Shown piece after piece: positions 4,597 through 61,532 of a stretch of 64,000 nucleotides of DNA; the stretch's first letter is position 1; each line of letters begins with the position of its first letter. The stretch lies in the IMG/VR virus record IMGVR_UViG_3300046792_000467; one strand, 5' to 3'. Source of the DNA: a virus. The notes under the pieces were generated by a model that ran no database searches, was not told where the DNA came from, and worked only from the letters and a program-made list of their open reading frames with translations. Made by a program: the position numbers and the translations under genes.

Positions 4597-4866
4597 TCAC
4601 CGCATGAGCCGAACGAAGCCCCACGGCGCCACCCGCGCGGCCCCTCGCTTGAGCTCGCGCCGCCGCTCGGCGCGACAGACGCGGCATTCCGGCCGGCGCC
4701 CGCCGGGGCTTGCGGCGTGTGGCGCGAAGTCCTCGACGGTCAGATCAGGTCTCGTGCACCAGGCGCATGCTCGGGGCGACTCCGGAGGGAGCGGCACCAC
4801 ACGATGATGCGGGGGGATCGGGGGGTATCCCGGAAGAAACTGACCGTTTACGGCGCGCGGCTTCAT
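4597..4866 (-). CDS. hypothetical Cys-containing protein (89 aa)
   Basis: ORF track; CxxC-type pairs (CAWC, CRVC) suggest a zinc ribbon. Confidence 0.4.
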   Translation of the reverse strand: MKPRAVNGQFLPGYPPIPPHHRVVPLPPESPRACAWCTRPDLTVEDFAPHAASPGGRRPECRVCRAERRRELKRGAARVAPWGFVRLMR

Positions 4867-4872
4867 GAGCGA

Positions 4873-7800: not shown

Positions 7801-8952
7801 CCTGACGAGCTCTACCGCCGGTGGGTTCGATCGCCCATCGTACCAGCCGGGCCACCGCATCACATCACTCGCCGGCGGCCGGTCCCGCCGAATGCGCAGG
7901 CTCTCGGTCACGCGCGCGCCCGTGAGGACGAGAAACCAGAGGAGGGCTGCGTCGCGCTTATCGGTGAGCTGCGGCCCGTCTGCGGCTTGCAGCATCCGCT
8001 CGACGAGCTGCGGGGACAGCTTCCCCTTCCGGGCGCGCCCGGCGCGCCTGTCGGCGCCGAGGCCCACGCGCACTCGGGCCCCGACGTCGGCGAACACGTT
8101 GTGGCGGATGAGCGCGCCCTCGCCGCTCGACGTGTCGGCCTCCATGAGCGCCTTCCAGAACGCGGAGAGGGCCGCGATCCGAACGACGATGGTCGTGCGC
8201 CCGACGGCGCGGGGGCGAGGCAGGGAGTAGGAGAAGATCTCGTCGAGTGGCACCTCGTGCCTCTGCTCTCCGTCAGGCACGATCACTACGAAGGTGGAGA
8301 TCCCGATGCGTGGGTCGTCGCGGCGGAGCTCCTCCATCGTCGGCGAGCGGACAAGGAGCCCATGGAGCACCATGCGACCGAGTTCGGCATGGAGCCACGG
8401 CCGATCGATGACGGCGCTGTTGCTCCGGGACGGGTGGGCGCTCGCGAGCCAGACAGGGACCTTCGTCACGATGCTCGTGATGTCGGTCGTGCCGAGTTCC
8501 TTCACGATGTCGTAGAGCGCGAGGCGCACGCGCTGGTCGCCATCGCGGAGCTTCTCTCCCTCGAGCGAGAAGGTTCGTGTCGCGAGCCACTCGACGTAAT
8601 CCTCTGCGTCCTTCCTCGTGACCTCAGGCGGCGAGACGACGCGCCCGTACTTCGTGGCGATCCACTCGAAGAACTCGGTCAGCGCCGCGGCGTAGACGCG
8701 TCTCGTCGCCGGCGAGTAGGTGCCGATGTACGCCTCGTACTCCGTCGACCCCTGCTGTTCCGATCTGCCCGTGAACCGAGAGAGGACGGAGGCGTACCGG
8801 TGGGAGGCCGCCTTGTCGCCGCCGGCAAAGGCCGTCGTCCACTTCTCGAGCGATTCCGGTGCGGTCTTCCCCCGGAAGAGGGCCAGCTCCGGCCGGTTCG
8901 GTTTGGGCATAGCGTTAACATAAACGCTCCGGCTTCCCGTTCCTAGCGCCAT
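4873..8952 (-). CDS. giant tyrosine-recombinase-domain protein (1359 aa)
   Basis: N-terminal SAM-like core-binding region (YAAALTEFFEWIA...AEDYVEWL). Catalytic motifs are LVLTGARVTE (box I Arg) and HAFRHFAATAM...LGHESILTTETY (HxxR...H...Y). These are followed by a Pro-rich linker and a C-terminal extension of about 750 aa with no motif I recognise. Confidence 0.85.
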   Translation of the reverse strand: MALGTGSRSVYVNAMPKPNRPELALFRGKTAPESLEKWTTAFAGGDKAASHRYASVLSRFTGRSEQQGSTEYEAYIGTYSPATRRVYAAALTEFFEWIATKYGRVVSPPEVTRKDAEDYVEWLATRTFSLEGEKLRDGDQRVRLALYDIVKELGTTDITSIVTKVPVWLASAHPSRSNSAVIDRPWLHAELGRMVLHGLLVRSPTMEELRRDDPRIGISTFVVIVPDGEQRHEVPLDEIFSYSLPRPRAVGRTTIVVRIAALSAFWKALMEADTSSGEGALIRHNVFADVGARVRVGLGADRRAGRARKGKLSPQLVERMLQAADGPQLTDKRDAALLWFLVLTGARVTESLRIRRDRPPASDVMRWPGWYDGRSNPPAVELVRKRGFHQRLPFPPYALKALTAFQVELSRHAPLEGTQSDNPKGLHYLAPSAIGWRYKLLSEEPDAPLFPPVHFWGANSTHNYQELKPNRSTRPDYRRPMTRNGADALLKRIAKKAGFTEDEQALVHAHAFRHFAATAMSRKGKPLREIQHMLGHESILTTETYVEADTSTEALSGQNEILDFIAGAAHEPPAPADTEAPRQPPVRASKPVIDTYAVPARAERPRAPPRPQRRPARATRELERLVREGLPAQSPKVAPDAVVPTGRGLVAVGAEGPAVPPGSEVRDGISPPSPVHAYAGLRPPPAGVAAGERTGEQERIEFSRVNLRRDTPKGRKLANLALPGDKRDLVQQNPWLQENYDPWPINYGIGESSLLPWFARGSSSANGEVTVEVRDKTGARRAVVVPPLPVLARKQMDPALAPIHAKKLWETVEHMRARWLRTSPTKAFGLDRWWGAFLKMLEGLERGTKHKFRWAPFDASATVGKDIRAHDEEYLITWLELNADRYTTTVRAFEDIERPRGKSDLDDEEWVEFQATWRDASVIGVSPAEELPDWFVLDDPVRDIYENHRDEWDWFVKWLGAITGQKLTKVRKDTITKELEFATEERLGRVAQARELLKEYYETIEQLRTASGDKDARESIERTRKFLVEQLEEYGVQDPKEALKEGTTKKRSKRDATIERLLGNAFPDIGIEEIDPNVLKSRLFDASTLRLDLSKHTISHTKEFREQFALSYDGRDSECVVRRAARGMWEHVKRHGIPVERGPKRSSEYSMLYSVMLSYMAWIFPCPAEIETRMAAELTGKDVRMVWLNGVRRASQRIVRIDRDMDEGALRRLVIEEGLDEKSADEVIEAGLLSDSLRAQVALPAPEVAAAIAKSAVKDGQVVVTPGGTVVRRRPAGARRTPVREAEPIEIEEPEESAWEELLSVGGEHHLSGDDMVPNAPPPRYMTVGAFACGADYVANAEQVLPSAIRMMAAMTLPF

Positions 8953-29476: not shown

Positions 29477-29656
29477 ATGTCCGATGAAGAAGATCGAATC
29501 GATGCCGCCCTGGCGGCGCGTGAAATCGCCAGCGCCTTCTCCGTGTTGGCTGGCCTCCTGGAGAGCGGACAATCGGTCGCTCCCGAGACGCGGAACCAGC
29601 TCGCGGCGGCGTGCGGGGCGTTCCTTGGCGCCCTCGGCGCGCTAGTTGCGGAGTGA
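29477..29656 (+). CDS. hypothetical protein (59 aa)
   Basis: GAAAGGAA upstream of the ATG. Confidence 0.4.
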   Translation: MSDEEDRIDAALAAREIASAFSVLAGLLESGQSVAPETRNQLAAACGAFLGALGALVAE

Positions 29657-29658
29657 CC

Positions 29659-30435
29659 ATGCCAGCCAGTTACTGCGGGGACCACACCTCGCTCGCGATA
29701 ACGAAGTACGGCAATCTGATCTACGTCGACACTCGCGACACGTCGCTCGCTCCGCACCTCATGATGTCCGGCGACTGGGAGCCCTGGGTGACGAACGTCA
29801 TGGGCAAGACGCTCCTCAAGTACGAGGGCTGCACCTTCATCGACGTCGGGGCGAACGTCGGGTGGTACACGCTCCTCGCGTGCAAGCTCGGCGCCTCCCA
29901 CGTCTTCGCGTTCGAGCCGAACCCACGGATGTGCGAGCTCCTCCGGAAGACCATTGCGGTGAATGGATACCGTGAGCGCGTGACCTTGACGGAGGCGGCG
30001 TGCGGAGCCGAGGAGGGGCTCATGCGGCTGGAAGTCGATCCGACGGAAGCCGGCGGCGGACATGTCGTACCGCACCGACCTCGACTTCAGAACAAGGTCT
30101 TTGGAGAGTGCTCCGTTGTTCGTCTCGACAACGTTGTCTTCGGCGGCAACGTACCCACGGTCGACCCGCGCATCATCATGAAGATCGACGTCGAGGGCTT
30201 CGAGCCTGAGGTGCTCCGCGGCGGGAGAGAGATCCTAAAGCTCAACCCCATCATCTTTCTCGAGCACAACCAACAGGCGGCCCATTGTGCGATGTACCAC
30301 GATCTGCTCGACGCAGGCTTCGAGCTCCGTCATGCACACCACAAGGGCCATGCGGGGGAGCCACTGATCGTCAACCAAGTAATGGCGCTCGGTAACGCGG
30401 AGACCGTCATCTGCGCCATCAAAGGGGCCCTATGA
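29659..30435 (+). CDS. FkbM-family methyltransferase
   Basis: FIDVGANVGWYT...FAFEPNP...MKIDVEGFEPEVLRG pattern typical of the FkbM family. Confidence 0.75.
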   Translation: MPASYCGDHTSLAITKYGNLIYVDTRDTSLAPHLMMSGDWEPWVTNVMGKTLLKYEGCTFIDVGANVGWYTLLACKLGASHVFAFEPNPRMCELLRKTIAVNGYRERVTLTEAACGAEEGLMRLEVDPTEAGGGHVVPHRPRLQNKVFGECSVVRLDNVVFGGNVPTVDPRIIMKIDVEGFEPEVLRGGREILKLNPIIFLEHNQQAAHCAMYHDLLDAGFELRHAHHKGHAGEPLIVNQVMALGNAETVICAIKGAL

Positions 30436-32369: not shown

Positions 32370-32605
32370 GTATCTCTTGGAAGAGCTACTTCACGACAGT
32401 CGCGATCTACGCCGCACTGCTCTCCCCGATTGCGATCGCGGTAGCGTGGTCTCAGGGACATGCAGCTGGCTACGACGATGCTTGGAAGGAGTGCCTGGCG
32501 GCGCGCCGAGACATCTGTACCCGCATGGACCCAAAGCCACAGGTCGGCTTGCTAAAATCGCTTGACACCCGCTGCGGCAGGCTGCATCCTCCTGCTTCAC
32601 CATGA
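32366..32605 (+). CDS. small membrane protein (79 aa)
   Basis: GTGA overlap; N-terminal hydrophobic helix YFTTVAIYAALLSPIAIAVAW. Confidence 0.45.
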   Translation: MSISWKSYFTTVAIYAALLSPIAIAVAWSQGHAAGYDDAWKECLAARRDICTRMDPKPQVGLLKSLDTRCGRLHPPASP

Positions 32606-32766
32606 AACGTCGAAAGTTAACTCCACCCGAGATCCTCCGCGTCGCCGCGGAAGCCGAGGTCGACCCCCGGTCTGTTCGTAAGTGGCTCGCGGGTGGCAAC
32701 AAAATGATGCCCAACGTCGAGGCGCGGATCGTGCGGGCGGTAAAGACGCTCGGGTTTAGCCCATGA
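32602..32766 (+). CDS. 54-aa helix-turn-helix-like protein (below the ORF-track size cut-off)
   Basis: Hand-translated: MKRRKLTPPEILRVAAEAEVDPRSVRKWLAGGNKMMPNVEARIVRAVKTLGFSP. ATGA overlaps with both the upstream gene and the effector gene. Confidence 0.5.
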   Translation: MKRRKLTPPEILRVAAEAEVDPRSVRKWLAGGNKMMPNVEARIVRAVKTLGFSP

Positions 32767-34514
32767 CAAAAAGCCGCAACGACCCCCGAGGGGGTGTTCC
32801 TGTGAAAAAAGGGCGCTTCCATTCGCCCAAAAACGGGGCCAACGGCCACCGTAAGGACAGACGTAGGTCGTCCACCACAACTACCAGGAACACCCCCTCG
32901 GCGGCCGATGCGGCTCGCCGCGAATGGCTGCTCGAGATAGCCGCCAAGTGCAACCTTCCAGTGCCTGACGCCGCCCTGTCGTCGACCGGGGGCACTTGGC
33001 AGCTAACGAGCCGCGGTCGGGCGATTGGGCGTCTCAAAGCCGAAGCTGTAGAGAGCGGGAAAGCGGATCTCGTCGAGAAACTCTGTGAGCAGGTCTTCGT
33101 TGTGAAGGCCGACGTCGGGCGTGCTCTCGATGCGCCGTGGCAGGAGATCAGCGGCAACCTACACGCGGCCCGCGAGCGTATTGACGCGATCGTCAATGCT
33201 TGCACCCGTGCGCTCATCCTGCATGAACTTAGCGGTGGGGCGGCCCCGAACCTCTACGAGATAGCCACGAAAACGGACGCCCAAATGCGTGCGGCTGCGG
33301 CTATCAAACTCGAAGAGCTCAATCGCAAGAAACCGCCGAAAGACGAAGATGCTGAGACGCGTTCCAAACGAGAGAGCACCGCTGCCCGACTCGCGACGAC
33401 GGCGGCGTTTAGCTTCTCGGGGGCGACGCGCAGCATGCTCACGCAACGCGCCCAGAGCTCTTTCATCAAGTGGACCAAGCACAAGCGCGACGAGCGATTC
33501 CCCCACGCGACGCGAGGGCAACCAATTCCATTGCGAGCCGCCGACGGATGGGGGCTCGCTCTTGAGAAGGGGAGCTTCGTTCTCGAGTTCAAGATCGGCG
33601 AGGGGGAAACTTGCCGGTATCGCGTCAAGGTTCACCCTAGCGGCGGAAGTGCCATCGCCGCGGCCCGCGAGCTTGCTGAGGGCAAGGCCAGCAGGCGCGA
33701 CGCCAAATTGTTTTGGGACGAAGCGCGAAAGCGATGGATCGTCGCGATGACGATGGGGCGCCGGCGTCAGCCGCCGCCTGATCTCGGTGCGAACCCGCTT
33801 ACCATGGTCGTCCGGATCGGTATGCGTAAATTGCTCGGCGCGTGGTTCAGCGACTCGTCTTACGCGGAGATTGTGGCTGGCGGGCGCACAGGTTCGACAT
33901 TGCTCGCGCTGCTACGGCGAAAGCAGCAGTTACTCGATGCTAAACGCGTTCGCCAACGAGGTATCTCTGAGATGGCGCGTGGACCGAATGCGGTGCGCAA
34001 GAAGAACCGTAGAAAGCTCGGTGCGCTCGGGCGAGCAGAGCGCGCATTCGTCGATACGACCTGCAAACAGATAGCCGCCAACGTCGCCAACGTCGCCGCT
34101 CACAGCGGAGCAACTCGCATCATCGTACAGGTCCCCACAAAGCCGTTCAGTGACGAGGACGCCAAATATCTGGATCCGTGGCTCCTCGCGTGTATCCGCC
34201 GGTTTCCTTTGGGTGAGCTGTCGTCTCGCATCGTCTGGGCCCTCGACAAGCGAGGGCTACCGAGCGAGGTGAACGACATCGGCTACGACGCCTGCACTTG
34301 CCCGGACTGCGGCAAGATTGACGGGGGAAGCCACGATCCTGCCAAGCATTATTTCGACTGTACCAACGAAGCGTGCGAGCTTGAAGGCAACGCCGATTAC
34401 ATCGCGGCGATCAACGCCATGGCCCGTTCGGGGGTGCCTACGGAGGATCTCAAGCGTATGCTCCAGGCCGCGCACCTTATCGCCCGTGAACTACGGAAGA
34501 AGCGGGCTGCTTGA
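32763..34514 (+). CDS. compact type V CRISPR effector (Cas12/TnpB-family, 583 aa), subtype unassigned
   Basis: C-terminal CTCPDCG...FDCTNEAC zinc ribbon followed by GNADYIAAINA (RuvC-III-type). TRIIVQVP sits at the RuvC-II position and VVRIGMRKLLGAWFSD at the RuvC-I position. A co-oriented CRISPR array lies 0.7 kb downstream. Confidence 0.8.
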   Translation: MTKSRNDPRGGVPVKKGRFHSPKNGANGHRKDRRRSSTTTTRNTPSAADAARREWLLEIAAKCNLPVPDAALSSTGGTWQLTSRGRAIGRLKAEAVESGKADLVEKLCEQVFVVKADVGRALDAPWQEISGNLHAARERIDAIVNACTRALILHELSGGAAPNLYEIATKTDAQMRAAAAIKLEELNRKKPPKDEDAETRSKRESTAARLATTAAFSFSGATRSMLTQRAQSSFIKWTKHKRDERFPHATRGQPIPLRAADGWGLALEKGSFVLEFKIGEGETCRYRVKVHPSGGSAIAAARELAEGKASRRDAKLFWDEARKRWIVAMTMGRRRQPPPDLGANPLTMVVRIGMRKLLGAWFSDSSYAEIVAGGRTGSTLLALLRRKQQLLDAKRVRQRGISEMARGPNAVRKKNRRKLGALGRAERAFVDTTCKQIAANVANVAAHSGATRIIVQVPTKPFSDEDAKYLDPWLLACIRRFPLGELSSRIVWALDKRGLPSEVNDIGYDACTCPDCGKIDGGSHDPAKHYFDCTNEACELEGNADYIAAINAMARSGVPTEDLKRMLQAAHLIARELRKKRAA

Positions 34515-35149
34515 ACGAAAGGAAGGTAACCTTGGACGACGGACCCCCCATGAACAAAAAAGAAGCAATCAAAAGGTTTGGAACCGAAGACCTGAGTCAG
34601 GTGCTATCCATACTCATCGAAGCGCGAAACAAGGTAGACGTCGCTGAACACGAGTTCTTGCTTCTCGTTGAGGCTTTCGAGGTGAGCGAAATTTGGCGCG
34701 CACTTTCGAGCGGTACCTTCGAGCAGGCACTGGACCTCACACATGTCTGCGATTCAAAACGCTACACACGGTGGCGTCGCGCGCGGGCTGAGCTAGGCGA
34801 CAACGTCGTCTCTGAAGTAGGAGTCTCTGGATCTACTCAGGCTGTGCGTATCGAAAGCCCCGCCAACAGGCAGAAGGCGATCGACACCATGCGTGCGACC
34901 GTAGCCAAAGAGGGCGCAGTAATAAGCGAGCGCACCGCTCGCTCGATCGTGGCTAGGCTCTTGCCCTTCAAATCGCGAGTACTAGACGGTGCCAAGCGGT
35001 CGGCTGAGCTCGAACGAGAGAACGCCGTCCTTAGGCGGCGCGTGAAAGAGTTAGAGCAAGAGGTCGCCGTGCTGCGCGACCGGTTACGCGGCAAACCGCC
35101 GCCCACGCCAAAAACCAGCAAGAATCGGAGGCAAGCTCGACCATCATGA
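34511..35149 (+). CDS. unknown protein between effector and array (212 aa from TTG 34511, or 199 aa from ATG 34550)
   Basis: ORF track; overlaps the effector stop; C-terminal coiled coil (ELERENAVLRRRVKELEQEVAVLRDRL) and a basic tail. Confidence 0.5.
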   Translation: MNERKVTLDDGPPMNKKEAIKRFGTEDLSQVLSILIEARNKVDVAEHEFLLLVEAFEVSEIWRALSSGTFEQALDLTHVCDSKRYTRWRRARAELGDNVVSEVGVSGSTQAVRIESPANRQKAIDTMRATVAKEGAVISERTARSIVARLLPFKSRVLDGAKRSAELERENAVLRRRVKELEQEVAVLRDRLRGKPPPTPKTSKNRRQARPS

Positions 35150-35207
35150 CGACCCTCTCGCAAACCGTCTTTTAAATACGCGAATTTGCTGTTCGCGTAC
35201 GTGGCGG
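35150..35207 (+). promoter_or_regulatory. putative CRISPR leader
   Basis: Locally AT-richer stretch (TCTTTTAAATACGCGAATTTGCTG) directly upstream of repeat 1. The degenerate terminal repeat is at the opposite end of the array. Confidence 0.4.
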
Positions 35208-36674
35208 CTCGAGAGCGACGTAACGAAGTTGTGGGAACGGAAGTGGCATTCTCGGCCATCGCGGCGCGCGTGCGCACCCCCTCGAGAGCGACGTAACGAA
35301 GTTGTGGGAACGGAAGTTCAGGAGGGCGCGGATCGGCGACAGGTAGAGCACCGCTCGAGAGCGACGTAACGAAGTTGTGGGAACGGAAGATCGTACCGAT
35401 GACCGGACGCACCCAGTCACGAAGGCTCGAGAGCGACGTAACGAAGTTGTGGGAACGGAAGGACGGGTGACCCCAGGCGTCGCGGATGGCGTTCTCAACG
35501 GCTCGAGAGCGACGTAACGAAGTTGTGGGAACGGAAGTCGCCCGCGGCCCCCGTCACGAACGTGTTCGGGAGCTCGAGAGCGACGTAACGAAGTTGTGGG
35601 AACGGAAGATGGTCGGCGCGACCGAGGTGCGCATGCCGGCGCGGGCTCGAGAGCGACGTAACGAAGTTGTGGGAACGGAAGTTGCTCCGACGAATGATTG
35701 TGTCGGCGCGCTCGTGATCTCGAGAACGACGTAACGAAGTTGTGGGAACGGAAGCAGGTAATCAAGTCGTACGAATCGGAGCCGGCGGACCTCGAGAGCG
35801 ACGTAACGAAGTTGTGGGAATGGAAGCGCCTATGCGCCCCGCCACCTCCCGGCGAGTCATCCTCTCGAGAGCGACGTAACGAAGTTGTGGGAATGGAAGG
35901 CGAGTCACTGGGTCCTCGCTGGCGGCGACGAAGTTGTGGGAATGGAAGGCAGGAGTTTGCGCAGGCGCAGCGCGCTCCGTGCGCGCCGAGAGTGATATGA
36001 CGAAGTTGTGGACATGGAAGATGGCCTCCGACGTGTCCTCCGTCGTCGTGGTCTTCGTCGAGAGCGACATGACGAAGTTGTGGACATGGAAGTGACTAGC
36101 CCACGGAGTGCGCGCCGGAGGTTCGCGGTGGTCGAGAGCGACATGACGAAGTTGTGGACATGGAAGATAGTCAGCGGTCCTGCCGTCACTCCGGTCACCG
36201 CGGTCGAGAGCGACATGACGAAGTTGTGGACATGGAAGGCGCTGGTCCGCGAAAGCGCAAGGGATCACGAAGAGGGTCGAGAGCGACATGACGAAGTTGT
36301 GGACATGGAAGGAGAACAGCGAAATTCGTCGGGTTGTCGACCAGCATGGAGGTCGAGAGCGACATGACGAAGTTGTGGACATGGAAGAGGCCGCGTCCGG
36401 GTTGTTCGGCACGCGTCCCGCCTGAGTCGAGAGCGACATGACGAAGTTGTGGACATGGAAGCAGCCGAACGCGAAGCTCGGGCGGTTTCCGAGGCTCGCG
36501 CGGGTCGAGAGCGACGTGACGAAGTTGTGGACATGGAAGTTCCGCGCACCCGGCAGATTCTGGAAACGCACGTCCGGTCGAGAGCGACGTGACGAAGTTG
36601 TGGAAATGGAAGGCCACGATGGCGGACACGTCTGCTAGACCGAGAGCGACGCGAAGAAGTTGTGGGAATGGAAG
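35208..36674 (+). CRISPR. CRISPR array: 21 repeats of 36 nt (one truncated) and 20 spacers
   Basis: Repeats 1-10 are CTCGAGAGCGACGTAACGAAGTTGTGGGAA[C/T]GGAAG. Repeats 12-20 are GTCGAGAGCGAC[A/G]TGACGAAGTTGTGGA[C/A]ATGGAAG. The terminal repeat is degenerate. Full spacers are 35-42 nt and all differ; the other two are the roughly 24-nt remnant in the truncated 48-nt unit at 35900-35947 and the 26-nt last spacer. Confidence 0.95.
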
Positions 36675-36753: not shown

Positions 36754-36795
36754 GCTGCTCGAGGCCTATAACGTCGAGACAAGGCCTCGAGCAGC
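36754..36795 (+). terminator. 13-bp perfect stem-loop downstream of the array
   Basis: GCTGCTCGAGGCC-(16 nt)-GGCCTCGAGCAGC read directly; only a weak U-tract (TAGTT) follows. Confidence 0.4.
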
Positions 36796-38522: not shown

Positions 38523-38767
38523 CGCGCCCGGAGCTCCCTATGCAGGGCCCAAATGATTTCTCCGGGGATCCACACGAACCAGACTACCGCTCGCACGACG
38601 AAGATCCCCGCAATGACCGAGCACGCCGCAAAGCGTCGCCATGCCTCCACGGGATCTCCGCAGCACGGACAGCGGCGCCTCCACGTGTTCCGGAGCGCCT
38701 TCCACATCACCGGCACGGCGATGAGCGCCGTTGCGATACCAACCGAGACGTAGAGTCGCCAGATCAC
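38519..38767 (-). CDS. small two-TM membrane protein (holin candidate)
   Basis: GTG start overlapping the stop of the SLT gene; two hydrophobic helices with a CPCCGD loop. Confidence 0.4.
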   Translation of the reverse strand: MIWRLYVSVGIATALIAVPVMWKALRNTWRRRCPCCGDPVEAWRRFAACSVIAGIFVVRAVVWFVWIPGEIIWALHRELRAR

Positions 38768-39429
38768 GTCGCCGCCTTGAGCCACTTTGGCTTCGCCGTG
38801 AGCCCAGCAATCACCGCCGCGGCATAGAGCCCGGCCCCTCCGACAGCGAGACCGAGCAGCGTCCGCCCGTACCGCGGGCTCATGTCGAGATACATGACGG
38901 CGGTGTTGTTCCACTTGATGACCGAGCCGGCGTAGTCGCCTGCCATCGCGAGGTTCCATGCATTGCGACCGGTGTCGCACACGCGTCCGCTGTTGTAGGC
39001 CGCCGCCATCTCCGGAAGCTGACCATCGCGCAGATTGGCTAGCTTGGCTAGCAGTTCAGCACCGACGCGAATATTTGCCTTCGGGTCGTACATGTCGTCC
39101 GGCGTCGCACCGAACCCAGCTGCCGTCGCCGGCATGATCTGCATGACGCCGATGGCGCCCGCGCCAGAGACCTTCGAGGCTTGGTCGCTCGGGTTCTCGG
39201 ACCAGAGGCCCGTCTCCTCGGTGGCGATGGCGAGAAGCCATGCGGGCGGGACTCCCGTGCTACCACCCGCGTCCAAAAACAATCCCCCCCAGTTGGCCCA
39301 CGTCTGCTCCATCTGTCGGAATTGAATGGTTCCTGGAGCGAAGAACGGCGTTCCTTGGCCTTGGACGGCGATGAGGCCGTCTCCCTGCATTTCCCAAGCG
39401 AGGCCGCCACAGGTGTTCGTAAAGGCCAC
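38764..39429 (-). CDS. SLT-domain lytic transglycosylase with C-terminal hydrophobic anchor
   Basis: ATEETGLWSE (catalytic Glu), GVMQIMP and AAYNSG motifs; C-terminal LLGLAVGGAGLYAAAVIAGL. Confidence 0.8.
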   Translation of the reverse strand: MAFTNTCGGLAWEMQGDGLIAVQGQGTPFFAPGTIQFRQMEQTWANWGGLFLDAGGSTGVPPAWLLAIATEETGLWSENPSDQASKVSGAGAIGVMQIMPATAAGFGATPDDMYDPKANIRVGAELLAKLANLRDGQLPEMAAAYNSGRVCDTGRNAWNLAMAGDYAGSVIKWNNTAVMYLDMSPRYGRTLLGLAVGGAGLYAAAVIAGLTAKPKWLKAAT

Positions 39430-39473: not shown

Positions 39474-40043
39474 GTGGATCGACGCTGGCTTCTCGGGGGT
39501 CTTCTGATCGCCAGCGGCGTTGGCCTGGCCGCGCTCGCCACCCGACGGCCCAAGATCACCGCCGCCTCCCGGGTCCTCCTGATCGGCGACAGCCTCGCGC
39601 TCGGGCTCACGACTCCGATGAAGCAGCTGGCCGAAGAGTCCGGGGTCTCCGGCTTTCTTGGCCACGGCATCGTCGGGACCCGGATCCCCGACTGGGCCGG
39701 GTCCGACTGGCTCGACCAGGCGCTCGTCGACTTCGAGCCGACGTTGATCTTGGTATCGCTCGGGACGAACGACGAGAAGACCGCGCCTGGCGCCGTCGGA
39801 CGCGAAGAGCCGTCGTTCCACGATCTCCTCGGGAAACTCCAAGGAACGGGCGCGCAAATCGTTTGGATTGGCCCACCGGAACTTCCGTTCCCACGCCAAG
39901 GCGTGTCGGACATGGTCAGAGCGGTCGTGCCTCACTACTTCGATAGCGAGCAGCTCGACATCCCGCGTTCACCCGACGGGCTTCACCCGAACGCAGCGGG
40001 GTACGCCGGATGGGCCGGCGCCATCTGGCAATGGCTCACGTAG
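39474..40043 (+). CDS. SGNH/GDSL hydrolase with N-terminal signal/anchor
   Basis: LLIGDSLALG (GDS block), SLGTNDE and DGLHPNAAGY (DxxH) blocks. Confidence 0.75.
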   Translation: MDRRWLLGGLLIASGVGLAALATRRPKITAASRVLLIGDSLALGLTTPMKQLAEESGVSGFLGHGIVGTRIPDWAGSDWLDQALVDFEPTLILVSLGTNDEKTAPGAVGREEPSFHDLLGKLQGTGAQIVWIGPPELPFPRQGVSDMVRAVVPHYFDSEQLDIPRSPDGLHPNAAGYAGWAGAIWQWLT

Positions 40044-41779: not shown

Positions 41780-42274
41780 TTACCGTCTGAGGAGGTGCCT
41801 GGCGAGAGCTACCCCGCCGCCGGCGAGCGCGAGCCCTAAAATCACGCGCGGCGCGGGTCGGTCGAAGAAGGGGCGGTCTTCCGGCCACTCTCCAGAAAAG
41901 GCTGGACATTCCGCCCCTGTTGGGCAGATGTCGTGCATCGCCACGTCCGGGTGCCACTCGAAATGCCCCGGATCTTGCGGCACCTTCCAGTCCCCTCCCC
42001 AGACGCCCCCGAGCCGCTTCCAGTAGTCCCCGAGGATAGCGTAGTCACTGAAGGGCCCCGCGATCTGCAAGTCCGCGGCGCGCCCCCAGACGTGCCAGGA
42101 CTGGCAGCCCGCCACCGTCGTCGCGACCCCTGCCCCTCCCTCGTAGATGGCGTTCTGTTCGGAGCACGTCCGGAGCGTAGAGATGACCTTCGCGTCGATG
42201 CCCTGATTGGCCGCGAATTGCAGAAGCTGGGACAGCTTCTGCTCCATCCATGGCGTGAGGCCGGTGTCCGACAT
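41780..42274 (-). CDS. peptidase M15 (VanY/L-Ala-D-Glu peptidase-like) endolysin with C-terminal hydrophobic anchor
   Basis: SWHVWGRAADL (SxHxxGxAxD) and DPGHFEWH motifs; C-terminal VILGLALAGGGVALA. Confidence 0.75.
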   Translation of the reverse strand: MSDTGLTPWMEQKLSQLLQFAANQGIDAKVISTLRTCSEQNAIYEGGAGVATTVAGCQSWHVWGRAADLQIAGPFSDYAILGDYWKRLGGVWGGDWKVPQDPGHFEWHPDVAMHDICPTGAECPAFSGEWPEDRPFFDRPAPRVILGLALAGGGVALARHLLRR

Positions 42275-42768
42275 CAGTCGTCCGCGAACTCATCGAGCGG
42301 TGAACCGTCTTCGTCTTCTTCGTAAAACACCGGCTCGGCCCGCGGCATTTCCTTCCTCAGTGGCGCGCCTGTCATGGGATCGTACATCCAACCCATGGCG
42401 TCGACCATTGGGCGCTGCATCGGCATCCGCTCGGAGAGCGGCCCTGTCTCTTCGATTTCGGCGGCCACCACACGCGTGCTCCGCCGCTGCACCTTGCCCG
42501 GAGGGAGCCGGTTGGCCCGGAGGGCTTGCGTAACGTTCTGCCCGGTCCCCGCCGCGTACTGAGCCACGAGCTGGAAGTTCCGAGAACGCGGGCTCGTCGT
42601 GACCGACCGGTCGTGCTTCCCCTCGGTCGCACCGATGCGGGCGAGCGACTTCGCCGCCTCGAGCCCGAGCGGCTTGTTGTTCACCTGGCGGATCGGTTTC
42701 TTCCTATCCCGGATCGCCATCTCGAAGACGAAGTACTTCTCGTTCGCGGCGGTTGCTCTCTTGGTCAT
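42274..42768 (-). CDS. hypothetical basic protein (164 aa)
   Basis: ORF track. Confidence 0.5.
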   Translation of the reverse strand: MTKRATAANEKYFVFEMAIRDRKKPIRQVNNKPLGLEAAKSLARIGATEGKHDRSVTTSPRSRNFQLVAQYAAGTGQNVTQALRANRLPPGKVQRRSTRVVAAEIEETGPLSERMPMQRPMVDAMGWMYDPMTGAPLRKEMPRAEPVFYEEDEDGSPLDEFADD

Positions 42769-42780
42769 CTTGGTTTCTCC

Positions 42781-43620
42781 TCAGGCCGCAATGAGCGCGG
42801 ATGCCTCGACGGCCCAGTCGAGCACCACGTCCTTCGGATAGTTCGGGCCGCAGTCGACGTGCGTCCCGAGATCTGGGTACGCATGCGTCACGTCGATGTG
42901 CTCGCAGAGCCCCCGCTTACCGGCGAGGATATCCTCAGGCGTGAGCCAGACGAGCGGGATACCGAACTCCTTCGCCTTGTGCGCCACGAGCGCGGCAACG
43001 AGGCGCAGCATGCGCTGCCCGTACGGATCCAGCCACTCGGCCCTCGTCTGCTTCGCGTACCCAGCCTGCTCGATACCGATCGAGCGGGGGTTCACTCCGG
43101 GCGCGTGGAACGCAATGTGCTCGTCCCGCACGCACTGAATGATTGAATCGTCATCCACGACGTACCCGGACGAGCTCGGCTTCACCGGGCCCAACTTGAA
43201 GTACGCAGCGACCGATTCCGCACTCGAGTGAAACTCGCCGATCTCCGCTGAGTGAAGCGTGAGAATGTCCACCGTTGTGCGCGCGGCGTAGCGCCAATCC
43301 CGCGCCTGCACGAATGGAATCGAGGGGAGCTCAGGCCAGACCGGCACAACCACCGGATCCTCGAAGAGCGTCGGATCGAGGAGCGACCGCGTTCGGACTC
43401 CGACAACGCCGTCATCCGCGATCCCGCGGCGTACCTGGAAGGCTTTCGTCGCCAGAGTGGTCATGGGCCCGAACGACCCATCCACCGAGATCGGCCACCT
43501 CGCGGGCCAGGCCGGCGGGAAAGCCTCCCCCTGCTGCGATGCTTGCCACGCCGCGACATCGTGCCCCGTCATCCCGCCCTTCAGGACTCGCCACGTGGAC
43601 GGGGCAGGCTTGATCGGCAT
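42781..43620 (-). CDS. N-acetylmuramoyl-L-alanine amidase (amidase_2/PGRP) with N-terminal PG-binding domain
   Basis: DGSFGPMTTLATKAFQVRRGIADDGVVG (PG_binding_1-like), then LHSAE...AFHAPGVNPRSIGIEQAG; start set at MPIKP. Confidence 0.75.
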   Translation of the reverse strand: MPIKPAPSTWRVLKGGMTGHDVAAWQASQQGEAFPPAWPARWPISVDGSFGPMTTLATKAFQVRRGIADDGVVGVRTRSLLDPTLFEDPVVVPVWPELPSIPFVQARDWRYAARTTVDILTLHSAEIGEFHSSAESVAAYFKLGPVKPSSSGYVVDDDSIIQCVRDEHIAFHAPGVNPRSIGIEQAGYAKQTRAEWLDPYGQRMLRLVAALVAHKAKEFGIPLVWLTPEDILAGKRGLCEHIDVTHAYPDLGTHVDCGPNYPKDVVLDWAVEASALIAA

Positions 43621-43838
43621 GAATATGCATGGTACCCGATTCGTCCAAGCTAGCCAATGCTGAACCCCGTCGTGGTCGTGGCCATCGCCTGGATCGCCTT
43701 CCCTTTCGCCTGGGGCCTTGCCCGCCTCTGGCGGAGCGCCCCGTGACGGCGTCGCTCGCGTACCTCCTTGGGTGGCTCTCCGGTGGCCTCTGCGGTATTT
43801 TGGTCGGAGCCTGGTGGGAAGCCCGACAGTCCGTCCAG

Positions 43839-45014
43839 CTACGTCGTAGAGAGAGCGTTCCAGCGGAGAGTGGCGACGACGCGGATCACACTCGCTAGTG
43901 CGTTGGTGACCGTGAGCACCATCGTCGCGCCGGAAGCGGAGGCTACGACCGATGCTCCGATGGAACCAGGATCCGTTCCCTCGGACGTCGTCTGGCCGTC
44001 TACCACGAAGGCGCCACCCGTCTGGTGAGCGTCCACCTTGAGCTTCGCCGACTGCCCGGCAACCGCCGGTGATACCTTGCTCGCATACGTGAGCTCGATC
44101 CAGAACGTGTAGTTGAAATCGTTTTCTCCGGTCCAGGCCGCCGTGCCGAGCGCATCCGCCAGTACCCCTGTGGTACTGGCCCCCACCTCCACGTGATACG
44201 TCACCGCCCCGCTCTGGATCCCGCCGTGCGCGAACCCACCGAACGCTTCGCCGCCGCCGCGCACTTCCTCCGCCGCGTGCCCCTGCCCGGTCTGGCCAGT
44301 GACGGCACCCCATCCGGACGCGGACGCGGCAAACGCCTGGGCTCGCGCGTTGTAGTTTCGAGCGTGGCTCGCCTCCTCCGAGGCCACGCCTCCGAATCCT
44401 TCCGAGTGCGACGACTCCCCAGAAGCGATACCGTTGTAGCCCTCGGCATGCGCGCCATTGTCGCCCGACGCGATATTCTCTCTCCCCTCCGCGTGCGCGC
44501 CAGGGTTGCCGCTAGCGGTGCAACCCACCCCTTCCACGTGGCACTGAGGGCCGCTTGCCGTACCGTTTTTGCCTTCCGCGTGAGAGGATAGGCCGGTCGC
44601 GACCGAGGTGTCTCCCTCCGCGTGAGCGGCGGCGCCGCGGGCGGCGTCCACGATGCTCCCCCCAGTGGTCGTCGTGTCGATCGCCGATGAGATGCTGAAC
44701 GTGGTGTTACCAGCGGCGAACGCAGGCACGCTCGTGATAGTCCGCGACACGACGTCCTGGATGACTGGCGTGCTGGGCTTGATCCTGGCCATGTCGCCGT
44801 TCACGAAAAATGCGGTCACATCTCCGGCAATCGTCACCGTCGTTCCGTTGGCCGCGATCGTGAACGTCGAAGGGGCGTCTCCGGCTCTCGAGAGCGACCC
44901 CTCTGCTCTCGAGTTATTCCCAGACGCGACCGTGCGATCGTTCGACGCGTTCGCGTTCATCCCCAACGTGAGGACGAGGTTCTTCGCGTACCCGATTCCA
45001 GAGTCGTCGTTCAT
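43839..45014 (-). CDS. tail-fibre/adhesin-like protein with AHAEG-type repeats
   Basis: Reiterated AHAEG..N.ASG / SHAEG / SHSEG motifs resemble YadA-head (Hep_Hag)-like repeats; start set at MNDDSG. Confidence 0.6.
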   Translation of the reverse strand: MNDDSGIGYAKNLVLTLGMNANASNDRTVASGNNSRAEGSLSRAGDAPSTFTIAANGTTVTIAGDVTAFFVNGDMARIKPSTPVIQDVVSRTITSVPAFAAGNTTFSISSAIDTTTTGGSIVDAARGAAAHAEGDTSVATGLSSHAEGKNGTASGPQCHVEGVGCTASGNPGAHAEGRENIASGDNGAHAEGYNGIASGESSHSEGFGGVASEEASHARNYNARAQAFAASASGWGAVTGQTGQGHAAEEVRGGGEAFGGFAHGGIQSGAVTYHVEVGASTTGVLADALGTAAWTGENDFNYTFWIELTYASKVSPAVAGQSAKLKVDAHQTGGAFVVDGQTTSEGTDPGSIGASVVASASGATMVLTVTNALASVIRVVATLRWNALSTT

Positions 45015-45022
45015 GATCGCCT

Positions 45023-46282
<1,260 letters not shown>

Positions 46283-54889: not shown

Positions 54890-57004
54890 ATGGCTAGCTG
54901 GCTATCCATGTCCGACCGAGATGCGGGGTCTCCCGAGTGCCCGAGGCTTGTCCTCTGCCTGATGGTGAAGAACGAGGAGAAGATCATCGAGCGGTGCCTG
55001 CGTTCGGTTCTTCCTCACGTTGACGGGGTCGTCGTGTGCTGGAACGGCACCGACGAGACGCGCGCCATCGCGAACCGCATCCTCTCAGAGTGGGACCGCG
55101 ACGCGGCGTTTCGCTCCTTCCATTTCGAGTACCACGAGTGGGTGAACTTCGGACACAACCGATCGCTGTCCGCGAAGGCCGCGAAGGGATGGGTCAGGGA
55201 AATGCATCGGGAGTGGCCCCTCGACTCCACCTACCTCCTCTTCATGGACGCGGATATGGAGCTCGTTGTCGAGCCGGGCTTCGACCGGAAGATGCTCACG
55301 GCGCCGGGGCACTACCTCATCCAGCTGAACCACGGCGAGTTCTACCCGAACCTCCGTCTCGCGCGGCTCTCTCACGACTGGCGCGCGGTCAGCGTCACAC
55401 ATGAATACTGGGCGGCGACGCCGGACATCGGTGACCCTCCGGAGATCGGCCGGCAGTACATGTGGCTCCGCGATCACGACGACGGCGGCTCGAAGAGCGA
55501 CAAGACCGAGCGGGACATTCGTCTCCTCGAGCAGGGGCTCATCGACGAGCCAGGAAACGTCCGCTACATGTTTTACCTCGCGCGGGCGTACGCGGACAGT
55601 GGGAAGCACGAGCAGGCCGTTGCGCTCTACCGCAAACGCCGCGACGCGGGAGGCTGGGATCAAGAGGCGTGGTACGCGCATTACAGGGAGGGGCTGTCCC
55701 TCCTCGCGCTCGGACGGGAAGCGGAGGGGGTCGGTACCCTCGTCGCCGCCTACCAGCGGCGCCCGTCGCGGGTGGAGCCGCTCGTGAACCTAGCGTCCCA
55801 CCATAGAGAGAGGGGACGCAATCACGCGGCGCTCCTATTCGCTCGACAGGCGAGCAAGATCCCGCTCCCGAGCACCGGTCTCTTCGTCTGGGCAGATGCG
55901 TACCAGACGGCTCCTCTGAAAGAGATTGCGATCTCTGCCTACTACACGGAGCACCAGGACGAAGGGATCGCTGCCGCAGAAAAGCTCATTGGCGCCCGCG
56001 ACTGCGATGCGCATACGCAAGCCCACATGCTTCAGACGCTGAGCTTCTATGTGAAGCCGATGCTCGGGCAGGCCAACCGCATGGGCGTTTTTGCCGTATC
56101 CGAAAAGCTCCGGACGTCGTCCGCAAAGTTCCTCGGGCTCACCGAGCCGAACACCACCGAGTACGTCCCGAAGAACCCGGCCATCGTCACGTACCGCGGC
56201 ACGGTCTACGCCAACCTCTCGCTCGTCAACTACTACCACGAGCGCGGAGTCGTCTTCGCTCCGAAGGATCCAGACGGGATCGTTCGCACGAGGAACGTCG
56301 TCGTGCGCCCGATGGAGCCTCCGTTCGTCGGCGACGTGGAGACGACGCCTCTCTGGTGGCCCAGCGGCTGGAATCCCGATGTTCATGTTCGCGGGCTCGA
56401 AGATCAGCGATGGGTCGTGCACGAAGATCGGATCTGGTTTACCGCGACGTGCTTTCATCCGGCCGGGCGCCCCGAGGTCGTCCTCGGCAGGCTAAACACG
56501 ACCGTTCGCGACATCGAGTTCCTCACGACGCTGAAGTGCCCGCTCGCCGGGCCGTGCGAGAAAAACTGGGTACCGTGGGAGACGGGCAGGGGGCTGCTGC
56601 TCATCTACGGGTTCGATCCGTTCACATTGCTGCGGCCTGACTGCGTCACCGGAGAGTGTGAGGTGTACTCCCGCTCTCCCTCCCCCGTGAACGCCTCCTC
56701 CTGGCGCGGCGGCACGCCCCCAGTGAGAGCCCCATGGGGACGGTGGGTGATGCTCGTCCATGTCGTGGCGCACTTCGATGATCATCGTGTCTACATGCAC
56801 CGATGGGTGGAACTCGCCGAACACCGACCGATCAGTCGTTGGAGCACTCTCGTGGCTTTTGGCCACGTCGGCGTCGAGTACGCGACCGGGCTACTCGACA
56901 AAGGCGACACAGTTCTCGTCGCCTTCGGTTCCGAAGAGCGCGAGGCATGCTGGATGGAATTCGACTGGAGCACGATCGATAAATTGCTAGAGGAGAGAAA
57001 ATGA
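54890..57004 (+). CDS. family-2 glycosyltransferase with TPR region and large C-terminal domain (alternative start 54908)
   Basis: N-terminal [28 protein letters not shown]...DADME (GT-A DxD-type); TPR-like [25 protein letters not shown]. Confidence 0.65.
54892..54907. promoter_or_regulatory. pair of GGCTAGCC-type boxes
   Basis: GGCTAGCT-GGCTATCC read directly; lies between the first ATG (54890) and second ATG (54908) of the GT2 ORF. Confidence 0.4.
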
Positions 57005-58326
57005 TACTCGGGATCCCGACTCTGAATCGCTACGACCTGCTCGATAGGCTCATCGCCTCCGCGGAGGCCGGAACGGTGAAGCCTGACCGTTACGTCATTA
57101 TCGACAACGGAGGGAAGTATCGGCTTCCTGAGGCATTTCGTGCTCGCGACGACTTCGAGCTCGTGTCCCCGGGGAAAAACCTGGGCGTCGCGGCGTCGTG
57201 GAACCTCTTACTCGAGATGGCCGACGCCGATTCGATCGTGATCTCGAACGACGACATCGAGCTTCAACCGGATGCGCTCGAGAAATTCGCGGACGCATTC
57301 GAGTCCGGGCACGCGTTCATCGGCGCCTGCGGTGGCTGGGCGCTCTTCGGCCAAGCGCCCTCCGTTGCGGAGAAGATCGGTCTCTACGACGAGAACTTCG
57401 GCATGGCGTACTATGAGGACTGCGACTACTTGCTCCGTCTCCGCGCTGCCGGCATTCCCGTTCACGACCTCGGCTACATCGGGGCGCACGTCGGGAACGC
57501 TTCGACCCATGGCGGGACAGCGGAGGAGCAGGCTCTCGTCGCTCATAGCCGGGAGCGGAACTACGCCTACTTCGTCGCGAAGTGGGGCGCCGATAGCCCG
57601 CGCTGGGGCAATCCTCACGTGAAGAACTTCGCTGAGCCGTTTGATGGCATGCCTCCGCGCGGCTGGGCCAACAGGACGAACATGCGCGACATCATTGCGC
57701 CGATGCGCTGGGATGTCCTGAACTACATCGCGAAGAAGATCGGCGCGAAACGGTATCTCGAAATCGGAGTCGCGGACGGCTCTTGCATGCGTCGGATCGA
57801 GGTCGAAGAGAAATGGGGGGTCGATCCCAATCCGCAGCCGGGAGCCGTGTCCGCCTCGACGATATTCGTGCCCCGAACGAGCGACTTTTTCTTCGAGCGG
57901 CTTGCCTCGACATCGGGGCAATTCGATCTCGTCTTCATCGACGGCGACCATCGTGCCGAGCAGGTCTATCGGGAGGTACATGCAGCGGTGACGGTCCTGA
58001 GCCCGAAGGGCGTCATCTGTCTCCACGACTGTAACCCGCACTCGGAAGAGATGCAGCAGGTGCCGCTCGCCTCCGGATGGCAATGGACGGGTGATGTCTG
58101 GAAAGCCATCGCGCGTCTTCGGAGCGAGGAGGAGCACCGCGTACGAGTCATCCCGTCGGACTACGGAATCGGGATTGTGCTCCCCGGACGCCCTTGTTCT
58201 GCACCAAAGCTCCCTGCCGAATGGGACCGGTTGCTCTGGCGAGATCTCGTTGCGGGGCGCCGGGAGATCCTCGGTCTCATCGCTCCAGGGGAATGGCGTG
58301 AATACCTGGACAGTCAGCTCCAGTAG
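57001..58326 (+). CDS. fusion of a GT2 glycosyltransferase and a class I SAM-dependent methyltransferase
   Basis: N-terminal [13 protein letters not shown]...VIIDNGG...ISNDDIEL. C-terminal YLEIGVADGS...DLVFIDGDHRAEQVYRE...GVICLHD. Confidence 0.7.
   Translation: MILGIPTLNRYDLLDRLIASAEAGTVKPDRYVIIDNGGKYRLPEAFRARDDFELVSPGKNLGVAASWNLLLEMADADSIVISNDDIELQPDALEKFADAFESGHAFIGACGGWALFGQAPSVAEKIGLYDENFGMAYYEDCDYLLRLRAAGIPVHDLGYIGAHVGNASTHGGTAEEQALVAHSRERNYAYFVAKWGADSPRWGNPHVKNFAEPFDGMPPRGWANRTNMRDIIAPMRWDVLNYIAKKIGAKRYLEIGVADGSCMRRIEVEEKWGVDPNPQPGAVSASTIFVPRTSDFFFERLASTSGQFDLVFIDGDHRAEQVYREVHAAVTVLSPKGVICLHDCNPHSEEMQQVPLASGWQWTGDVWKAIARLRSEEEHRVRVIPSDYGIGIVLPGRPCSAPKLPAEWDRLLWRDLVAGRREILGLIAPGEWREYLDSQLQ

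Positions 58327-61532
<3,206 letters not shown>

Follow-up and report, generated by a model that had tools for sequence, protein, structure and literature searches.

A plausible nuclease-dead type V system of Cas12f descent on a phage, with an altered RuvC site and a linked partner gene

Miniature Cas12 proteins of type V-M (Cas12m) are CRISPR-associated effectors with a non-canonical RuvC domain that use a CRISPR RNA (crRNA) only, and they bind double-stranded DNA without cutting it and silence transcription (PMC10442227, PMC11013384, bioRxiv 10.64898/2026.03.26.714355). Cas12m2 (PDB 8hhl), whose triad is H-D-D, was reported to bind without cleavage and to silence transcription, and it still did not cleave when restored to DED; Cas12m clades have HEK/HQK, HDD or NED triads, and direct binding of the non-target strand was proposed for those with HEK or HQK (PMC10442227). 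Type V-U24 (Altae-Tran et al. 2023, PNAS) was catalogued as an uncharacterised subtype with a noncanonical RuvC-I and a helix-turn-helix (HTH) protein, and the main text of that survey is silent on its function and structure, on any link to phages and on a loss of RuvC-II (PMC10691335). Here we describe a locus on a 64,000-nt stretch (hereafter, the window) of the virus record IMGVR_UViG_3300046792_000467, in comparison with fetched related loci (L001-L013) and with family representatives (P-numbers). The locus consists of a Cas12f-related effector gene, a partner gene and a CRISPR array, and a nuclease-dead, RNA-guided binder carried by a phage is a plausible interpretation of it.

Nuclease-dead relatives of TnpB and Cas12f that act as RNA-guided binders, some of them linked to HTH proteins, are also known, namely dCas12f-sigma-E, CRISPR-adjacent dCas12f and TldR (PMC13472631, PMC10705468). 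These proteins are shorter and C-terminally truncated with RuvC-III lost, whereas the effector described here keeps RuvC-III and the zinc ribbon, and they are found mostly without arrays, with a single fixed guide, on Bacteroidetes chromosomes and with a sigma-E partner, the adjoining gene being sigma-E or fliC/oppF. The family profile matches the dCas12f of PDB 9n9c at E 7e-16; identity with TldR or dCas12f-sigma-E was ruled out by the 21-repeat array, the intact RuvC-III and zinc ribbon and the lack of an adjoining sigma factor. Phages are also known to carry a compact type V effector with an array and without adaptation genes, as in Cas12r of Thermus Lalka phages, MvCas12m of myxophage MV-1, CasPhi and Cas-lambda, and a role in conflicts between mobile elements was proposed for them (bioRxiv 10.64898/2026.04.20.719267; 10.64898/2026.09.14.751636). 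All of these named phage effectors keep D-E-D and none has the partner gene. Cas12r, of which a D238A mutant loses interference, has 29-bp repeats (bioRxiv 10.64898/2026.04.20.719267), and identity with it was ruled out by the 36-nt repeats and the R-Q-D residues found here; MvCas12m was ruled out likewise, as it has D-E-D (bioRxiv 10.64898/2026.09.14.751636).

RuvC residues and descent of the effector

The effector gene (32763..34514, + strand) encodes a Cas12f-related type V protein of 583 aa in the list of open reading frames (ORFs); in public assemblies the gene call begins at a GTG at 32802, which gives 570 aa. The catalytic D-E-D triad of the TnpB/Cas12 superfamily is not found in this protein, which has R351-Q456-D545 instead. 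The RuvC-I strand T347-M-V-V-R351, followed by I352-G353, lies at 33801..33821 (+ strand). The family profile, built from 90 sequences, aligns the family's 'vlvVHRGv' with 'imgIDLGV' of AsCas12f, and in an hhalign comparison between the query clade and AsCas12f (probability 94.7 %) V349-V350-R351-I352-G353 falls on G-I-D-L-G. Because both place V349-G353 on this motif, R351 (33813-33815) was assigned to the catalytic Asp position and G353 to the conserved Gly of DxG. In a phmmer search against PDB, 'RIIVQVP' of the query was aligned with 'TIQMEDL' of AsCas12f, and therefore Q456 (34128-34130), the last residue of the RuvC-II strand R452-I-I-V-Q456 (34116..34130, + strand), occupies the catalytic Glu position. 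The same search put 'GNADY' on 'ANADY', so that the RuvC-III Asp545 (34395..34397, + strand), aligned with the 'NADY' of AsCas12f, is kept.

The structure predicted with AlphaFold2 (AF2) is consistent with these assignments: R351 ends strand 347-351 (beta1), Q456 ends strand 452-456 (beta4) and D545 opens helix 544-555, a modelled placement that matches expectation for the RNase H fold. Judged from the alignments, only one of the three carboxylates of a canonical RuvC site remains in the effector, and the loss of the other two is conserved; R351, G353, Q456, D545 and the zinc-ribbon residues C513, C516, C533 and C538 are invariant in the homologues of 63 % and 54 % identity, and 'MVVRIGM' ranks among the best-conserved stretches of the protein. 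An earlier reading of this DNA, made from the letters and a list of ORFs (the sequence-only reading), had located these features with exact coordinates (RIGMR, residues 351-355, at 33813-33827; Gln456, cag, at 34128-34130; Asp545, gat, at 34395-34397). It had correctly seen that RuvC-I has no Asp, that a Gln stands where the catalytic Glu is expected, as in the phmmer alignment, and that the RuvC-III Asp and the zinc ribbon (here CxxC...CxxxxC) remain, and the conservation in homologues that it proposed to look for was found for both G353 and Q456. Its RuvC-I register was off by two, since profile and hhalign put R351, not G353, at the Asp position.

Close homologues of the effector are rare. 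Only three (100, 63 and 54 % identity) were found among 5.8 billion proteins, and a profile search of the same index with the 90-sequence alignment returned nothing beyond them; a profile search of 1.84 billion cluster representatives gave 279 relatives, 137 of them with E < 1e-10. We then aligned the 132 relatives of at least 400 aa for a census of the triad. The RuvC-I column reads H78/R39/N6/K3, with Asp in 0/132. The sequence-only reading had taken RuvC-I for a motif decayed by single-nucleotide steps, which cannot be maintained: given that His or Arg is found family-wide and Asp never, the substitution is ancient and conserved rather than a recent decay. The RuvC-II column reads E97/D11/A8/G6/Q5, and RuvC-III has Asp in 111/132. 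The commonest combinations were HED (63) and RED (13), followed by RAD (7), REE and NED (6 each), HGD and HDD (5 each) and RQD (4). R-Q-D is unchanged across the three closest homologues, and the next neighbours of the query have RQD, RQQ, RAD and RGD. No acidic residue is present at RuvC-II in about 24 of the 132, which fall into at least three separate clusters (the RQD group, a RAD cluster and HGD members). Because the RuvC-II carboxylate was lost repeatedly while arrays and fold were kept, the census suggests that the family works independently of RuvC catalysis. The effector is not a pseudogene, being strongly constrained, with a confident fold and an intact zinc ribbon.

The relatives come from environmental sequence. 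Ten representatives that were looked up all derive from metagenome collections (Logan, ENA, JGI/IMG), with an NCBI accession for 0/10, and pattern scans of IMG/VR, GTDB genomes and JGI metagenome contigs, with 'MVVRIGM' as one pattern, found no close relatives. A tblastn search of the effector against 50,697 phage records, a collection that may predate the deposition of the Lalka phages, matched Virus Rctr197k only.

By descent, the effector is a Cas12f relative and not a Cas12m. The AF2 model, computed with the 90-sequence alignment, has a mean predicted local distance difference test score (pLDDT) of 89.9 and a predicted template modelling score (pTM) of 0.84, and it keeps the entire Cas12f architecture with WED/REC, RuvC fold and zinc ribbon. 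When the single effector sequence was used as query, only its C-terminal third gave matches, and these were weak (Pfam PF07282 at E 2e-4, NCBIfam guided_TnpB at 2e-4 and AsCas12f structures at 3e-4); the 90-sequence profile matched AsCas12f (8j12, 8dzj, 7wju) over its full length at E ~1e-69. In a Foldseek search against PDB, AsCas12f was the best match (8j12/8j3r/8dzj/7wju; E ~1e-20; template modelling (TM) score of 0.57-0.60 per target), ranks 1-16 were all Cas12f, with CnCas12f1 and OsCas12f after AsCas12f, and the top 50 were all Cas12, TnpB or Fanzor. Cas12m2 was matched much more weakly (TM 0.31-0.35), and membership in Cas12m was ruled out, as only the C-terminal ~70 residues, the zinc-finger/RuvC-III segment, match (E 2e-4 for 8hhl and 2e-9 for 23vu). 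With Cas12f, as represented by AsCas12f of Acidibacillus sulfuroxidans, CnCas12f1 (8hr5) and OsCas12f (9nzq), the protein shares domain order, zinc ribbon, miniature size and CRISPR association. Cas12f acts as an asymmetric homodimer on one guide RNA. However, AsCas12f has D-E-D and cuts DNA, whereas the effector here has R-Q-D, and the extra N-terminal domain, absent from AsCas12f, and the obligate partner gene, absent from Cas12f systems, are features of the present locus.

The zinc ribbon (TNB domain, Pfam PF07282, Cas12f1-like) lies at 34299..34376 (+ strand) with the pattern C513-x2-C516 ... C533-x4-C538; among the 90 sequences C513 and C533 are invariant and C516 and C538 nearly so. The extra N-terminal domain, at about residues 45-107 (32895..33083, + strand), is modelled by AF2 as an alpha/beta domain of a helix, three strands and two short helices that precedes the Cas12f-like core. 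The domain is modelled with high confidence; residues 1-33 are disordered. The hhalign alignment to AsCas12f begins at query residue 116, and for many family members the match to the profile starts no earlier than about position 76-80. These lack the domain, which is found in the query clade and in a small number of further subgroups (P0005, P0006, P0041, P0136). Note that a 54-aa ORF at 32602-32766 overlaps the effector start codon (ATGA) and is called as a gene in public assemblies; it has no family match and is not kept upstream of the homologous effectors in L001 and L004.

Partner gene and CRISPR array

The accessory gene that follows the effector (34511..35149, + strand) overlaps its stop codon and encodes an all-helical protein of 212 aa, shortened to 205 aa in the public gene call. 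The protein has an HTH-like N-terminal half, with helices 61-103 HTH-like in the AF2 model, a leucine-zipper-like C-terminal coiled coil and a basic tail; the model is of moderate confidence (pLDDT 70.7). Searches of Pfam and PDB gave coiled-coil noise only, with no Pfam HTH match, and Foldseek found no fold match. Homologues of this partner were detected by hmmsearch (E 1e-89 to 2e-8) beside the effector in the window and in L001-L004, L005, L007, L008, L010, L011 and L013. The partner is thus linked in every related locus with enough flank, across loci of ~20-60 % identity, and in L013 it lies upstream of the effector. The sequence-only reading had missed this gene, which probably contributes to the mechanism, perhaps as an essential component. 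In L009, about five repeat-like units (...GGATGTGGATyGrCTGGAAG, spacing 72-75 nt) at 4796-5110 overlap a truncated partner remnant of 121 aa.

The CRISPR array (35208..36674, + strand) comprises 21 repeats of 36 nt and 20 spacers of mostly 35-42 nt, in agreement with the full array that the sequence-only reading had reported. The repeat core GTTGTGGnnAnGGAAG was counted 21 times, compared with an expectation of 0.04. Repeats 1-11 belong to variant A, CTCGAGAGCGACGTAACGAAGTTGTGGGAACGGAAG, and repeats 12-20 to variant B, GTCGAGAGCGACATGACGAAGTTGTGGACATGGAAG, the two variants differing at 5 positions. Repeat 11 is missing 14 nt at its 5' end and comes after a 13-27 nt spacer remnant, and the last repeat is degenerate. 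Based on these repeats, the array looks like a composite, as of two arrays joined by recombination. A putative leader of 58 nt, read from the sequence, lies between the partner gene and the first repeat (35150..35207, + strand), with the degenerate terminal repeat at the far end of the array; a promoter and terminator scan of the locus was uninformative and showed no sigma-70-like promoter at the leader. A scan of the larger ORFs turned up no cas1, cas2 or cas4.

As in the window, an array of 36-nt repeats lies next to the effector in L004, L006, L007, L008 and L013, and degenerate mini-arrays are present in L001/L003 and L009. The 3' repeat end ...GTGG..A.GGAAG is common to the arrays of the window, L004, L001/L003 and L009, and the repeats of HED loci end in ...GGTGGAG. 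A metagenome scan with the repeat core gave single chance matches only. The repeats have little self-structure, and Rfam gave no match at the locus. AsCas12f needs a trans-activating crRNA (tracrRNA), whereas in six family loci (the window and five others), RNAduplex and complementarity scans found no anti-repeat above shuffled background apart from two short matches (13-14 nt and 17 nt). These scans suggest that the system is probably crRNA-only, unlike AsCas12f.

The first of the two short matches, ACTTCCGTTCCCAC at 39881-39894 on the + strand, is a perfect 13-14 nt complement of the variant A 3' end GTGGGAACGGAAGT (chance ~0.05) and lies 3.2 kb downstream of the array within a GDSL/SGNH lipase gene (39474..40043); it could be a chance match, an isolated fragment of a repeat on the - strand, or an anti-repeat. 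The second, at 20-36 of L007, is a 17-nt perfect complement of the L007 repeat 3' end, located at the edge of the contig and 6 kb upstream of the effector, and could belong to a second, inverted array or be an anti-repeat. In addition, a perfect 14-bp inverted repeat (GCTGCTCGAGGCCT / AGGCCTCGAGCAGC, 14-nt loop) without a T-run is found at 36754-36795, 80 nt past the last repeat, and could mark a transcript end or a protein-binding site.

Proposed function and its alternatives

We favour, with a probability of roughly 0.6, RNA-guided DNA binding without canonical RuvC cleavage, similar to that of Cas12m and involving the partner. Since an Arg stands at the position of the metal-bridging Asp and a Gln at that of the Glu, the effector is predicted to be incapable of canonical two-metal DNA cleavage. 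The proposed system would have three parts, the Cas12f-related effector, the ~200-aa helical HTH/coiled-coil partner and the 21-repeat array, carried on a phage. The array would be transcribed on the + strand into crRNAs with a repeat-derived 5' handle ending in ...GGAAG, and the effector-crRNA complex would make an R-loop on a matching target and remain bound. The positively charged former active site, with R351 and the retained D545, would probably grip the displaced strand, as proposed for Cas12m. Once bound, the complexes would keep the target from being transcribed or replicated; the most plausible target is a rival mobile element or a host gene. The partner may aid this blockade as a co-repressor or dimeriser, or may regulate the locus. 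The residue assignments and their conservation, the lack of the RuvC-I Asp across the family, the kinship with Cas12f, the array, the linked partner gene and the association with phages come from the data, whereas DNA binding without cleavage, silencing, what the partner does and what is targeted are inferred, and silencing in particular is a proposal rather than a result.

Cas12m serves as the working analogy for this proposal. Cas12m also has His at RuvC-I and includes clades with Gln at RuvC-II, and MmCas12m, GoCas12m and PmCas12m have N-D-D; the effector here has R-Q-D and its family H/R-x-D. Unlike the phage-borne family described here, Cas12m lacks a conserved partner gene and occurs mainly on plasmids and chromosomes.

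Several points weigh against binding without cleavage by a phage-borne system. First, an alternative hhalign alignment sets E465-D466 of the query on the catalytic E-D ('MED') of AsCas12f. Second, TnpB lineages are known that replace a lost RuvC-II Glu from elsewhere, presumably with activity retained (PMC10691335). Third, the retained D545 might mean a residual one-metal activity, for example in RNA processing. Fourth, no capsid or terminase gene was identified within the window. Finally, no protospacer was found in the window, the fetched loci, INPHARED or IMG/VR (the last with the first 20 nt of spacers 1-3), so that the targets and the silencing role are conjecture.

A more far-reaching reading, tentative and less likely than not, is a two-protein device for RNA-programmed transcription control, made up of the effector and its obligate HTH/coiled-coil partner and carried by phages with a multi-spacer array, in which the dead Cas12f-like protein would provide the address and the partner the output, namely repression, activation or replication control of host or rival genes. 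If true, this would be a natural phage-borne, multiplexed form of CRISPR interference or activation (CRISPRi/CRISPRa) in which one subunit is dedicated to the effector role. It would differ from Cas12m in having a partner, and from dCas12f-sigma-E, a chromosomal system, in having an array.

A serious rival is that the effector would be a targeting module only and that the output would come from the partner, acting as an RNA-guided transcription factor or as a recruiter that represses or activates, much like the sigma-E or HTH partners of dCas12f. The phage would then reprogramme host or phage expression instead of excluding competitors. The strict linkage of the two genes across loci of ~20-60 % identity, including the one with the partner upstream, their operon-like overlap, and the HTH-like helical half, coiled coil and basic tail of the partner are consistent with such a role, and HTH proteins accompany both V-U24 (PMC10691335) and, together with sigma-E, the dCas12f lineages (PMC13472631). 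However, the partner model is of moderate confidence and has neither a fold nor a family match, the partner of L009 is truncated, the diverse 20-spacer array resembles an immunity or conflict repertoire more than a fixed regulon, and no spacer matches the window itself. We consider this rival unlikely.

Less probable still is that the protein remains a nuclease with a rearranged site, in which E465/D466 or E502 would stand in for the lost Glu and Arg351 would take part in a one-metal mechanism, so that it cuts DNA or processes pre-crRNA in the RuvC pocket. The sole nearby candidate for a relocated acidic residue is the cluster D464-E465-D466 ... D471 (34152..34175, + strand), just past the RuvC-II strand. 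In the close clade E465, D466 and D471 are invariant, D464-E465-D466 and D545 are kept throughout, and the alternative hhalign alignment noted above would place E465-D466 at the catalytic site; compensated RuvC-II rearrangements exist among TnpBs (PMC10691335), and several Cas12 enzymes process pre-crRNA in RuvC (PMC10442227). On the other hand, HED members carry the canonical ED plus a second acidic cluster at +9/+10 ('IEDYGGIxPxEDR'). Because these members hold both clusters, E465/D466 correspond to the second one, which is missing from the Glu-less members P0005-P0008, and a relocated catalytic pair is unlikely from this comparison. The sequence-only reading had allowed that acidic residues from FSD or SDEDAKY might fill the site; for E465/D466 the link to the second family cluster speaks against this, and the alternative alignment speaks for it. 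E502, the Glu of beta5, was rejected as a specific compensation. MAFFT columns at first hinted at its enrichment among Glu-less members, but when the motif 'G-h-x-h-x-E-V' was checked in a register-free way it proved common irrespective of the canonical Glu and missing from P0006-P0008, indicating that E502 is a family-wide 'xEV' residue. Above all, a rearranged active site is unlikely because the RuvC-I Asp that bridges both metals is missing family-wide, with a cationic Arg here, and the Cas12m2 restored to DED did not cleave (PMC10442227).

That the locus is a decaying, non-functional Cas12f remnant and passive phage cargo, as the lost catalytic residues, the one truncated and one degenerate terminal repeat and the degenerate mini-arrays in L001/L003 and L009 might indicate, is highly improbable and already largely refuted by conservation, given that all homologues have intact ORFs of similar length, the altered motifs are invariant, 279 relatives have the same non-canonical RuvC-I, and the high-confidence fold, the conserved partner and a long array with 20 distinct spacers are kept.

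As to novelty, the family has probably been catalogued already in 2023 as V-U24, whose description fits both hallmarks. The noncanonical RuvC-I is in common, here with His or Arg for Asp in most family members and never Asp, and the HTH protein of V-U24 may correspond to the partner, which is present here at every locus with enough flank and is HTH-like in the moderate-confidence model. The sequence-only reading had supposed that this combination had not been described, which is too strong, as V-U24 is catalogued (PMC10691335), DNA binding by Cas12m is known, and phage-borne type V systems, including a Cas12m, have been reported (bioRxiv 10.64898/2026.09.14.751636, 10.64898/2026.04.20.719267). 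What would be new is a dead Cas12 binder of the Cas12f lineage that is phage-borne and has an obligate partner, with a clade that additionally lacks the RuvC-II Glu. If the ribonucleoprotein binds without cutting, it would represent another independent nuclease loss in Cas12, within the Cas12f branch, and the first such loss tied to phages and an obligate partner, and phages would use programmable DNA binding, beyond cleavage, against hosts or rival elements. The family would then comprise hundreds of diverged members that are naturally dead, AsCas12f-sized (~450-580 aa) and probably crRNA-only binders, with possible uses as compact scaffolds for CRISPRi, base editors and epigenome editors. 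Its graded triads (HED, RED, HDD, HGD, RAD, RQD) would offer a natural series on the role of the RuvC pocket after catalysis is lost.

Phage context and neighbouring genes

The evidence for a phage origin is good for the family and reasonable for the element in the window. Family members are found on IMG/VR viral contigs of 59-112 kb (L005-L008), three of the four with 36-nt-repeat arrays, and the 56-kb contig that carries P0005 (RQD; L009) also has genes for terminase, portal and a Mu-like capsid. In Virus Rctr197k (GenBank KX853510.1; L013, 2889-5452), the HED effector Rctr197k_117 is annotated as 'transposase-like protein', the partner Rctr197k_118 as 'hypothetical protein', and a 4-repeat CRISPR is annotated as well; the whole is not annotated as a CRISPR-Cas system. 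The window itself encodes a soluble lytic transglycosylase (SLT), a 164-aa endolysin-like protein and a 510-aa endolysin, within 38764-39429 and 41780-44313 on the - strand, tail-fibre-like Gly-rich proteins at 45156-46148 and 59057-61057, a glycosyltransferase/methyltransferase block at 54890-58326, and many ORFans. The phage context assumed in the sequence-only reading is therefore backed by the endolysin-type, SLT and tail-fibre-like genes of the window and by relatives on phage contigs. Its remark that transposition genes are absent also stands, as no transposase or Tn7 genes were seen nearby and the neighbours of the effector are small ORFans and the partner. Identity with Cas12k of the type V-K CRISPR-associated transposons was ruled out, with no tnsB, tnsC or tniQ beside the effector.

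The sole recombinase is a tyrosine-integrase domain 24 kb from the effector. This domain (~250-575, PF00589, E 7e-18) is the one recognisable part of an unusually large 1359-aa protein encoded at 4873-8952 on the - strand, of which some 800 residues have no assignment. A FkbM-type methyltransferase gene (PF05050) is located at 29611-30435, a few kb upstream of the effector, and others are found in L010 (713-1564) and L012 (6858-7634). In the locus of the distant member P0011, one lies upstream as well, after an N6/N4 DNA methyltransferase. These FkbM surroundings may represent a shared anti-restriction neighbourhood.

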